Positions 2,729 through 39,060 of a stretch of DNA of 64,000 nt are shown piece after piece. A program made the translations under genes and the position numbers. Positions within the stretch are counted from its first letter, which is position 1. Every line of letters starts with the position of its first letter. The stretch lies in NCBI RefSeq assembly GCF_055900595.2, contig NZ_CM148325.1. One strand, written 5' to 3'. The notes beneath the pieces were generated by a model. The model did not search any database. It saw only the letters and a list, made by a program, of their open reading frames with translations, and was not told the DNA's origin.

Positions 2729-3538
2729 CTAATTCGGGCGCTCACAAAGTGGGGCTAAATATTCATATAACGTTGCTGACGAAAAGGAGACATCGCCACA
2801 GGCACGTACGGGCATCACTGGCATTAACGCATTACAAATAACCATCTCATCTGCCTGCAACGCCTCTTCCAGAGTGGCTTGCACTTCGACAAGCTGATAA
2901 GAGGATTGTGCCAGTAAACGGATACAGAATTGTCGCATAATGCCGTTAACACCTGCCTGCTCTAGTCGCGGCGTATAAACTACATTGCCCTTCCGCCAGA
3001 ACAAATTAGCCGCACAGCATTCCGTAACCCACCCTTCGCTGTCAAGGACCAGCGCCTCATCAGCGTTTGTCTGCTCAAGATGAGAGCGGATCAATACTTG
3101 TTCAAGCCGATTAAGATGTTTAATACCTGCAAGATGAGGATTGCGCCCCAGCCGCACCGGGCTTAGCGCCAACATCATCCCCTCGTTACGCAAACGATCG
3201 TAATGTGCAGGATAAGCCGTAACGGAGAGAATCCGCGTTGCCGGTCCGCTGTTCAATGTGCTGTACCCTCGCCCGCCACTACCGCGACTGATCACGACCT
3301 TCAGCACACCATTCTGCTGTTCTGCTGCCAGCGTTTTCATCTCTTGTTCAAGCTGAGGCCAGAAGTCACAGGAAATCATCAACCGCTGACAAGCATCCTG
3401 TAGTCGCTGGATATGTGCCGATAACAAACTGACTTTACCGTCGATAACTCTGGCGGTGGTAAAACAACCATCACCAAACTGCGTTGCTCGATCGCTTACT
3501 GCCAGCGATTCCTGCTTATGACCGTTAATTAAGAACAT
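2729..3538 (-). CDS. pabC: aminodeoxychorismate lyase
   Basis: 269 aa fold-type IV PLP enzyme; AAGGAG ribosome-binding site upstream of ATG at 3538. Confidence 0.93.
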
Positions 3539-3645
3539 ACCGGCTCCTTATCAGAGAATTGTTAGTGTGGCAGCATGTTCACTACAGAACAAGTCGGAAT
3601 AAAAGCTAATAAATATCCTCCGGCATAGCCGGAGGTTTTTCAAAT

Positions 3646-4358
3646 GCGCCTGTAAGGCTCTGTTACCAGCCGCGCCCTAACAGGCGCATACGATCTGACA
3701 TTTGCATTCAACTTCGTTACTTACGGCCCGTAAACGGGCTGCCCGGATATGGAATCGATAACTGCTCCCCCATTTTATCCTCTTCAAGCTGGTGCTTTAT
3801 GTAGTCCTGTATCTTCGCCGTGTTCTTACCCACCGTATCGACATAGTACCCTCGGCACCAGAACTCCCTGTTTCTGTATTTGAATTTCAAATCCCCAAAC
3901 TGCTCGTAAAGCATCAGACTGCTTTTCCCTTTCAGATATCCCATAAAGCCGGATACGCTCATTTTGGGTGGGATTTCCACAAGCATATGGATATGATCTG
4001 CGCAGCACTCTGCTTCCAGAATCCGTACGCTTTTCCACTCACACAGCTTTCTCAAAATACTGCCTATCGCCCTACGCTTCTCTCCGTAAAACGCCAGTCT
4101 TCGGTATTTCGGCGCAAAAACTATGTGATATTTACAGTTCCAGCGGGTGTGCGCTAAGCTCTTTTCGTCCCCCATTGGGACCCCCTTTTGATTTCTTGTT
4201 TGACACTTGCAGTTGCCAGACCGCAAGGTGTTTTAACAAATCAAAAGGGGTTTTAATAACTGGCTCAAAGCTGAAAGCTTTCCGGAACCCCCAGCCTAGC
4301 TGGGGGTTTTCTGTGCACAAGAAAAAAGGCCCGCAAGCGGACCTTTTATAAGGGTGGG
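3646..4358 (-). mobile_element. IS200-type insertion sequence (IS200/IS605 family, tnpA only); boundaries approximate (about +/-40 bp)
   Basis: Intact Y1/HuH transposase ORF, stem-loop sequestering its ribosome-binding site (around 4180..4240), perfect palindrome AACCCCCAGCCTAGCTGGGGGTT at 4284..4306, imperfect hairpins near both ends. The fabF-pabC gap is 830 bp here versus roughly 120 bp as I recall for K-12. Confidence 0.75.
3717..4175 (-). CDS. tnpA: IS200 transposase TnpA (Y1 HuH single-strand transposase)
   Basis: 152 aa from MGDEKSLAHTRWNCKYHIVFAPKYRR, with HIHMLVEIPP HuH motif and catalytic-Tyr region; ORF track begins 17 codons upstream. Confidence 0.9.
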   Translation of the reverse strand: MGDEKSLAHTRWNCKYHIVFAPKYRRLAFYGEKRRAIGSILRKLCEWKSVRILEAECCADHIHMLVEIPPKMSVSGFMGYLKGKSSLMLYEQFGDLKFKYRNREFWCRGYYVDTVGKNTAKIQDYIKHQLEEDKMGEQLSIPYPGSPFTGRK

Positions 4359-36952: not shown

Positions 36953-38071
36953 ATGAAATACGATCTCATCATTATTGGCAGCGGTTCCGTAGGCGCTGCC
37001 GCCGGGTATTATGCAACCCGTGCCGGTTTAAACGTGCTAATGACCGACGCCCATATGCCACCGCATCAACACGGCAGCCACCACGGCGATACGCGATTAA
37101 TTCGCCATGCTTATGGTGAAGGCGAAAAGTATGTCCCGCTGGTCCTCCGCGCGCAAACGCTGTGGGATGAACTCTCCCGCCACAACGAAGAAGATCCCAT
37201 TTTTGTACGCTCTGGCGTCATTAACCTTGGCCCGGCTGATTCCACATTTCTCGCCAACGTCGCCCACAGCGCCGAACAGTGGCAACTCAACGTTGAAAAG
37301 CTCGATGCGCAAGGGATTATGGCCCGCTGGCCGGAAATACGCGTCCCGGACAACTACATCGGCTTATTTGAGACTGATTCCGGCTTTTTACGCAGCGAAC
37401 TGGCGATTAAAACCTGGATTCAACTGGCGAAGGAAGCGGGTTGTGCGCAGTTGTTCAACTGCCCGGTCACCGCAATTCGTCATGACGATGATGGCGTAAC
37501 TATTGAAACCGCTGACGGTGAGTATCAGGCGAAAAAGGCGATTGTCTGCGCGGGAACATGGGTAAAAGATCTGCTCCCGGAACTGCCTGTCCAGCCCGTA
37601 CGCAAAGTATTTACCTGGTATCAGGCCGATGGTCGCTATAGCGTGAAGAATAAATTCCCGGCGTTTACCGGTGAACTGCCCAATGGCGATCAATATTATG
37701 GTTTTCCGGCAGAAAACGACGCGTTGAAGATTGGCAAACATAACGGAGGCCAGGTTATCCATTCAGCGGATGAACGTGTTCCGTTTGCGGAAGTCGTCAG
37801 CGATGGCTCGGAAGCCTTCCCGTTCTTGCGCAATGTATTGCCGGGTATCGGTTGCTGCCTGTACGGCGCTGCCTGCACCTATGATAATTCGCCTGACGAA
37901 GATTTTATTATCGATACTCTACCCGGCCACGATAATACACTGCTCATTACCGGCCTGAGCGGGCACGGTTTTAAATTTGCGTCAGTTTTAGGGGAAATAG
38001 CTGCCGATTTTGCGCAAGACAAAAAAAGCGATTTTGATTTGACGCCATTCATGCTTTCCCGCTTCCAATAA
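36953..38071 (+). CDS. solA: N-methyl-L-tryptophan oxidase
   Basis: 372 aa, FAD-binding [15 protein letters not shown] motif. Confidence 0.96.
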
Positions 38072-38091
38072 TCATCATTACGGCCTCCAGA

Positions 38092-38232
38092 ATGAGGCCG
38101 TTTTTACAGGAGTATTTAATGCGTCGGCTGTTGCACTATCTCATCAATAATATTCGCGAGCATCTGATGCTTTATCTTTTTCTCTGGGGACTGTTGGCAA
38201 TTATGGACCTGATCTACGTGTTTTATTTTTAG
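38092..38232 (+). CDS. yceO: small membrane protein YceO (46 aa)
   Basis: Not in ORF track. Reads [46 protein letters not shown]; start overlaps the solA terminator hairpin CGGCCTCCAGAATGAGGCCG. Confidence 0.6.
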
Positions 38233-38493
38233 TTTTTCCGCACTGACATAAACTGACAAATATTTAATCTCCCTTTCATTTAGCGTGAAAAATTGAATGA
38301 GATTCTTCCTGCCTCTACAGCACTCACCAGACCTTCCAGATGCTGAACCCACTAAACTTATGAAGATTCTTTCATTATTAATTCAAAATTATTGAAATAA
38401 AAATAAATATCATTCAATTTGTTATTTTTGTGTTGCAATTCATTCTCCGACACGCCATTTTCTTTCTCTCGCAAATTCTTTTTGGATGCACTT

Positions 38494-39060
38494 ATGTCAT
38501 TCACAAATACCCCTGAACGCTATGGTGTTATATCTGCGGCCTTACATTGGCTAAGCGCAATTATTGTCTATGGCATGTTTGCTTTAGGTCTGTGGATGGT
38601 CACGCTCAGCTATTACGATGGCTGGTACCACAAAGCACCCGAATTGCATAAAAGCATCGGCATTTTGTTAATGATGGGGCTGGTTATTCGCGTTCTTTGG
38701 CGTGTCATATCTCCACCGCCGGGTCCGCTGCAAAGTTATTCGCCCATGACTCGTGTTGGCGCAAAGGCTGGACATCTTGCATTGTACCTATTGCTCTTTG
38801 CCATCGGCATCAGCGGCTATCTGATCTCAACTGCCGATGGTAAACCGATCAGCGTTTTTGGCTGGTTTGACGTCCCCGCGACCCTCGCCGACGCTGGCGC
38901 ACAGGCTGACTTTGCCGGTGCCCTGCATTTTTGGCTCGCGTGGAGCGTCGTAGTACTGTCCGTTATGCACGGATTTATGGCCCTGAAGCATCATTTCATC
39001 GATAAAGACGACACTCTGAAGCGCATGCTGGGAAAGTCGTCATCTGACTATGGAGTATAA
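38494..39060 (+). CDS. yceJ: cytochrome b561-family protein YceJ
   Basis: ORF track trimmed to MSFTNTPERYGVISAALHWLSAII (188 aa). Confidence 0.9.
   Translation: MSFTNTPERYGVISAALHWLSAIIVYGMFALGLWMVTLSYYDGWYHKAPELHKSIGILLMMGLVIRVLWRVISPPPGPLQSYSPMTRVGAKAGHLALYLLLFAIGISGYLISTADGKPISVFGWFDVPATLADAGAQADFAGALHFWLAWSVVVLSVMHGFMALKHHFIDKDDTLKRMLGKSSSDYGV

Follow-up and report, generated by a model that had tools for sequence, protein, structure and literature searches.

A likely start-codon correction for yceO of Escherichia coli and a conserved hairpin between solA and yceO

The small open reading frame (ORF) behind solA in Escherichia coli is the already known gene yceO (b1058; UniProt YCEO_ECOLI; Pfam DUF2770), and its functional start is very probably the ATG at position 38119 of the window, the 64,000-nt stretch of contig NZ_CM148325.1 (assembly GCF_055900595.2) analysed here. 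The ATG at 38092, which lies in a hairpin, is a legacy K-12 longest-ORF call. Taken as a whole, we consider it likely that yceO is translated from 38119 as part of a solA–yceO unit with a leaky hairpin between the two cistrons, in which the read-through, the attenuator role and the effect of ribosomes are inferred. In practical terms, the analysis yields a likely correction of the b1058 start and a testable hypothesis of coupling between solA and yceO.

Identity of the locus and position of the start codon

A sequence-only reading of this DNA had named the ORF yceO, and the DNA match to annotated E. coli chromosomes bears the name out. The 601-nt stretch at 37900–38500 has matches in 5,424 of the 5,426 complete E. 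coli genomes, in several of them with 100% identity, and the order in the matching chromosomes is solA, then a YceO family protein, then yceJ. The window and K-12 share the same neighbours of yceO, with solA upstream and yceJ–yceI downstream, and their 37-residue YceO cores are 100% identical. At 38047, the window has T where K-12 has G (codon ATG versus AGG), and SolA ends in ...TPFMLSRFQ here and in ...TPFRLSRFQ in K-12. Features of the locus are collected in Table 1.

Table 1. Features of the solA–yceO locus, in window coordinates
Feature	Position	Strand	Basis
solA (N-methyl-L-tryptophan oxidase, DAO family)	36953–38071	+	ORF list; RefSeq/K-12 annotation of identical or near-identical DNA
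GC-rich stem-loop, 8 nt past the solA stop	38080–38101	+	Fold of −14.5 kcal/mol; covariation
46-codon ORF (legacy yceO)	38092–38232	+	ORF list
ATG1, legacy 46-codon start (K-12 b1058)	38092–38094	+	K-12 annotation; probably not the functional start
T5 run after the stem (short U-tract)	38101–38105	+	Sequence
Shine–Dalgarno AGGAG, 6 nt ahead of ATG2	38108–38112	+	Sequence; 16S duplex
yceO CDS as most likely translated, 37 codons and TAG	38119–38232	+	PGAP WP_001253418.1; Pfam PF10968; start conservation

Only the annotated start separates the gene described here from yceO of K-12, with 46 residues from within the hairpin in one case and 37 residues from 38119 in the other. The annotation of K-12 MG1655 gives yceO (b1058) as 141 nt and 46 residues, a version that is also annotated in many GenBank records, whereas PGAP, in a strain whose DNA is identical to the window, calls a 114-nt ‘YceO family protein’ (WP_001253418.1) that starts at the second in-frame ATG, window 38119. 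A search of the NCBIfam HMMs with YceO returned no family at E values up to 1, and the PGAP name must come from a rule other than an NCBIfam HMM; Pfam membership is unaffected.

The ATG of the 46-codon ORF does sit in the hairpin, as the sequence-only reading had said, with its A and T forming the last two bases of the loop and its G the first base of the 3′ arm. That reading's further claim, that the gene itself starts inside the hairpin, does not hold up: the conserved start is ATG 38119, which lies 17 nt past the hairpin and has AGGAG 6 nt upstream, and PGAP and Pfam agree on it. The Pfam profile PF10968 (DUF2770, 36 positions; gathering cut-off of 25 bits) matches residues 10–45 of the 46-mer with 79.1 bits (E = 2.4e-22), placing the beginning of the family at Met10.

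The start codon was compared across 59 Enterobacteriaceae loci. At the position of 38119, the alignment has ATG in 51 of the 59 and GTG in 5; in the other three the start is displaced by one codon. Within the nine codons upstream of this position, 19 of the 59 loci carry an in-frame stop, and 24 have no in-frame ATG, GTG or TTG upstream of the core start. The codon aligned with ATG 38092 is ATG in some Escherichia only, and by coincidence in one Kluyvera; three Escherichia species (L004, L005 and L037) have TTG instead, and other genera have stops or unrelated codons there. N-terminal extensions predicted in longer YceO homologues from databases are unrelated to one another. The duplex formed with the 3′ end of 16S rRNA reaches −6.9 kcal/mol at 38119, versus −1.7 kcal/mol over the 20 nt before 38092, where ATG1 is preceded by the CCUCC-containing 5′ arm of the hairpin and has no Shine–Dalgarno sequence. 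The opening energy is 12.6 kcal/mol at 38119 versus 16.3 kcal/mol at 38092, and a purine-rich motif resembling a Shine–Dalgarno sequence precedes the core start in most loci.

A conserved small-protein gene linked to solA

A scan seeded with SolA, covering one genome per species, gave 56 loci (Escherichia, Citrobacter, Salmonella, Kluyvera, Kosakonia, Leclercia, Yokenella, Pluralibacter, Siccibacter and others), to which six more divergent YceO homologues were added through a HMMER search of a protein library. Measured against the window, dN/dS of the 36-codon core lies between 0.05 and 0.29, with synonymous sites near saturation; over all pairs of 53 loci, mean pN is 0.19 and mean pS 0.69. 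Variable columns number 29, 18 and 36 at codon positions 1, 2 and 3, respectively, so that all 36 third positions vary. Five residues (M1, N11, R13, H15 and D30) are invariant in 42 distinct YceO sequences, a further nine positions are at least 90% conserved among them, and the orthologues are 36–39 residues long. Conservation of the ORF in related genomes had been proposed as a check, and it takes the form of strong purifying selection on the core (dN/dS of about 0.05–0.3). Together with the western blot of chromosomal YceO-SPA (PMC12529367), this answers the earlier doubt that yceO is a real gene.

The YceO-SPA seen by immunoblot from the chromosome was at least 10,000-fold below the pBAD-induced level (PMC12529367). 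In the same study, YceO is listed as detected by top-down mass spectrometry and was not detectable by bottom-up mass spectrometry in the wild type, and an N-terminal YceO peptide was obtained by mass spectrometry only when the 46-codon ORF was supplied on a plasmid. Because the plasmid carried that ORF, the peptide is uninformative on the native start. yceO has been reported as differentially expressed alongside acid-stress genes (PMC8765455), and two papers, including this one, call YceO an acid-stress protein without giving a mechanism; these are the sole functional labels that we found, and a full-text literature search for ‘b1058’ returned reference-number noise only.

AlphaFold2, run on the family alignment, predicts one continuous helix over residues 2–36 (pLDDT 93.9). 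Residues 1–15 are polar and basic, and residues 16–37 are hydrophobic (mean hydropathy of +2.05) with a buried Asp. From this model, the yceO product is most likely a 37-residue, single-helix predicted membrane protein of the DUF2770 family. A PDB profile search using the YceO alignment gave no match. DUF2770 is restricted to Enterobacteriaceae, and among 1.84 billion proteins it makes up only 38 clusters when grouped at 50% identity. In the representative of Salmonella enterica subsp. arizonae (L028, 4160–4270), an in-frame stop at codon 23 replaces a conserved Trp and the gene looks, from its sequence, like a pseudogene; the copy in subsp. diarizonae (L029) is intact. A 78-codon ORF with a GTG start overlaps yceO on the opposite strand (38116–38352, − strand), and it is probably a chance ORF because the substitutions are distributed over codon positions as expected for the + strand yceO frame.

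The YceO core lies just downstream of solA in 53 of 55 informative SolA-seeded loci, and all six YceO-seeded loci (6/6) have it directly after a DAO-family solA gene. The distance between the two genes ranges from about 40 to 130 nt, and the order is conserved: solA stop codon, 5–10 nt, GC hairpin, about 20 nt containing the ribosome-binding site (RBS), yceO. In about 16 loci yceJ–yceI are absent and yceO still follows solA, abutting or overlapping a convergent trhO; the linkage of yceO is to solA, not to yceJ–yceI.

The loci that lack yceJ–yceI include L040–L046, L048, L049, L054–L056, L060, L061 and L006, from Kluyvera, Pseudocitrobacter, Yokenella, Pluralibacter and E. albertii. In such loci no more than about 20 nt separate the yceO stop from the end of the convergent trhO, or the two overlap, as in L060 (yceO 3001–3114, trhO 3100–4164). 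The only SolA-seeded loci without a detectable yceO are L035 (Enterobacter sp. BIGb0383) and L051 (Shimwellia pseudoproteus), and in L051 the convergent trhO comes within about 70 nt after solA.

These data bear on two other accounts of the ORF. That it arose by chance as an open frame in an AT-rich spacer and encodes nothing would suit its very short length and the failure of bottom-up mass spectrometry to detect the protein in the wild type, but this account is refuted by the conservation data: dN/dS is near 0.1 and synonymous sites are saturated, the same five residues occur in all 42 distinct sequences, start and length are conserved, and an SPA-tagged protein has been detected. We give it a negligible chance and reject it. 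The other account accepts the gene and keeps the legacy start, so that ATG 38092 in the hairpin would initiate a 46-residue YceO and melting of the hairpin by read-through or by ribosomes would control initiation. The frame is indeed open from 38092, 46 residues are annotated in K-12 and in many GenBank records, and all Escherichia-like loci have ATG or TTG at that codon. Yet the codon is TTG in three of those Escherichia species, it sits at a loop–stem junction without a Shine–Dalgarno sequence (−1.7 kcal/mol), and both the Pfam model and PGAP begin at Met10. Outside Escherichia the nine codons are unconserved, with in-frame stops in 19 of 59 loci and no upstream start in 24; within Escherichia their codon pattern did not discriminate, as substitutions are too few and the hairpin, the T-run and the Shine–Dalgarno sequence constrain the same stretch. 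We judge the legacy start improbable, and the nine extra K-12 codons are most likely an Escherichia-specific open frame that happens to extend back into the hairpin. ATG1 is intact in E. coli, and minor initiation may occur there alongside translation from 38119.

The hairpin behind solA

The solA gene ends with TAA at 38069–38071. The stem-loop that follows has a 5′ arm ACGGCCTC (38080–38087), a 6-nt loop CAGAAT (38088–38093) and a 3′ arm GAGGCCGT (38094–38101), with a stem of 7–8 bp. Its z-score in a 76-nt context is only −1.85, making the single sequence weak evidence. Across orthologues, a GC-rich hairpin is present at the same position in every solA–yceO intergenic region, at a median of 6 nt past the solA stop and 20 nt ahead of the yceO start. 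When 47 distinct intergenic regions are aligned, 93.9% of stem cells are paired, 4 of the 7 pairs show compensatory (double) changes (35 cells) and none of 500 shuffles (0/500) reaches the observed covariation score; slid registers of the alignment pair at only 25–51%. The stems differ by genus, with examples including GGCCTC/GAGGCC, GGCCCCG/CGGGGCC, GGCTCCG/CGGAGCC and GGCACAT/ATGTGCC. In three loci (L041, L042 and L044), additional long, REP-like palindromes of high GC content separate the solA stop from the conserved hairpin, giving spacers of 86–131 nt. An Rfam search of 37800–38600 found no family, the only match being to a lncRNA at E = 0.11, which is meaningless.

The U-tract is not conserved: T5–T7 follows the stem in Escherichia and Citrobacter, and only 0–2 T in Kluyvera (1–2), Leclercia and Pseudescherichia. 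The sequence-only reading had described the hairpin and its TTTTT as the terminator of solA. The conserved, covarying stem-loop and the T5 run stand; the label of terminator is weakened, as the E. coli site falls short in our consensus terminator scan, which requires at least 5 T in the 8 nt after the longest stem; only 4 T are left once the A–U closing pair is counted. The curated Term-seq 3′-end tables of Adams et al. 2021 contain no entry for a solA or yceO terminator, for which expression may be too low. That the T5 hairpin of E. coli is a weak intrinsic terminator is plausible but borderline.

Transcription of yceO and its proposed coupling to solA

The hairpin and ATG 38119 are separated by only 17 nt, which contain the Shine–Dalgarno sequence. 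Because this interval is too short to hold a promoter, the yceO mRNA must originate upstream of the hairpin. The earlier statement that translation of the ORF depends on read-through or on a separate promoter is upheld, with any such promoter also lying ahead of the hairpin. No sigma-70-like match was found on the + strand between 37600 and 38700 by a scan that is insensitive, as it also misses any + strand yceJ promoter. Synonymous-site variability in the last 25 solA codons ranks in the top 7% of solA windows and does not drop at the 3′ end, which speaks against a conserved promoter embedded there; a promoter of a non-consensus or stress-sigma type may lie inside solA. Our literature search found no transcript data spanning solA–yceO, and the searchable supplements on transcription start sites, operons and ribosome profiling contained no yceO or b1058 rows (Weaver 2019 preprint, PMC11005335, PMC4909307, PMC5576327, PMC6131387, PMC9023263 and PMC8848933). 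Supplementary file 2 of Adams et al. 2021 places a region of Rho-dependent termination some 167 nt inside solA, which corresponds to about window 37120 (K-12 1120419, − strand). Rho-dependent termination there would further limit the transcription that reaches yceO under laboratory conditions. On the − strand, the AT-rich yceO–yceJ spacer holds a promoter-like TTGAAT-18-AATAAT (38388–38417) directed antisense into yceO, a single match against a chance expectation of 2.6 per shuffle.

In the arrangement that we favour, the solA promoter would also transcribe yceO, by way of polymerases that read through the hairpin. The E. coli hairpin (7–8 bp stem, T5) would act as a weak, leaky intrinsic terminator, and in genera without a U-tract it may serve more as a stabiliser of the mRNA 3′ end of the solA segment. 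The outcome would be abundant message for SolA and scarce message for YceO, and a leaky terminator, a solA 3′-stabiliser or both would explain the very low level of YceO. A ribosome finishing solA would hinder formation of the hairpin, which starts only 8–9 nt past the solA stop, thereby favouring read-through into yceO while solA is being translated. Li et al. 2016 (PMC4824070) found the terminator tR2 almost fully repressed when it lay 8–9 bp from a stop codon and maximally active only beyond 30 bp, and attributed the repression to the terminating ribosome. Combined with the conserved stop–hairpin spacing of 5–10 nt, those data predict the same ribosome effect at yceO.

Two alternatives concern what the hairpin does and where transcription begins. 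The hairpin might be mainly an intercistronic mRNA-stability element: once the transcript is processed, the solA part would be shielded from 3′ exonucleases and the yceO part would decay, so that a single transcript would yield the two products in unequal amounts. The mere 0–2 T that follow the hairpin in Kluyvera, Pseudescherichia, Leclercia and other genera, the E. coli site left uncalled by the consensus scan and the lack of a listed Term-seq 3′ end there (Adams et al. 2021) would all fit; the T5–T7 directly after the stem in E. coli and Citrobacter has instead the classical terminator form. We regard this as a possible but somewhat unlikely main role, and stability and termination are in any case compatible and yield the same operon picture. 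We think it unlikely that yceO has its own promoter in the 3′ part of solA, with the hairpin serving as a 5′ UTR, as a 5′ stabiliser or as a solA terminator that yceO transcripts must pass. Independent regulation could be reflected in the differential expression of yceO with acid-stress genes (PMC8765455), and the scan that we used is crude; but it gave no + strand sigma-70-like match, the last 25 solA codons are unconstrained at synonymous sites, and such a transcript would still need read-through of the hairpin. The strict linkage to solA over many genera fits co-transcription.

The sequence-only reading called the arrangement unusual for a real gene. The hairpin between solA and yceO is real and strictly conserved; the overlap of coding sequence and terminator disappears with the start at 38119. 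With the start so corrected, the layout of stop codon, hairpin, RBS and small ORF is that of an ordinary operon-internal attenuator, of which rpsU–dnaG–rpoD is a classical case. Operon-internal partial terminators set the ratio of upstream to downstream expression (PMC4824070), and solA–yceO shares with them co-directional genes, a GC hairpin and short U-tract in between, a downstream RBS right after the hairpin and a hairpin near the upstream stop codon. Unlike them, the U-tract of solA–yceO is missing in several genera, and read-through here is inferred.

Small single-helix membrane proteins such as CydX, KdpF, AcrZ and MgtS have genes that adjoin that of a larger partner or share an operon with it. 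YceO resembles them in its 37 residues, its one predicted helix, its hydrophobic C-terminal two-thirds, its single larger linked gene and its low abundance; it differs from them in that its putative partner, SolA, is annotated as a soluble flavoenzyme. Hok, Ldr, Ibs and TisB, on the other hand, are small hydrophobic peptides of type I toxin–antitoxin systems, and YceO shares with such toxins a small hydrophobic helix and an RBS near RNA structure. We rejected this class: yceO is present in a single copy, shows strict synteny and vertical conservation and has invariant polar residues, the antisense promoter match (38417–38388) is within chance and there is no Rfam match. Several of CydX, KdpF, AcrZ and MgtS are listed in PMC12529367. 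A more speculative proposal, which we advance tentatively and hold doubtful as a whole, is that the solA stop, hairpin, RBS and yceO form a translation-coupled leaky terminator that ties YceO synthesis to SolA translation, and that YceO, with its N11, R13, H15 and intramembrane D30, is a dedicated membrane partner or regulator of SolA and not a stand-alone stress peptide.

The K-12/UniProt entry for YceO probably carries nine N-terminal residues that are not translated, and the likely correction of the b1058 start affects peptide libraries, tagging constructs and expression plasmids, as with the 46-codon ORF and its N-terminal peptide in PMC12529367. The locus further offers a natural example of a putative terminator placed no more than about 10 nt from a stop codon, and the invariant solA–hairpin–yceO module is a testable lead to the function of YceO.
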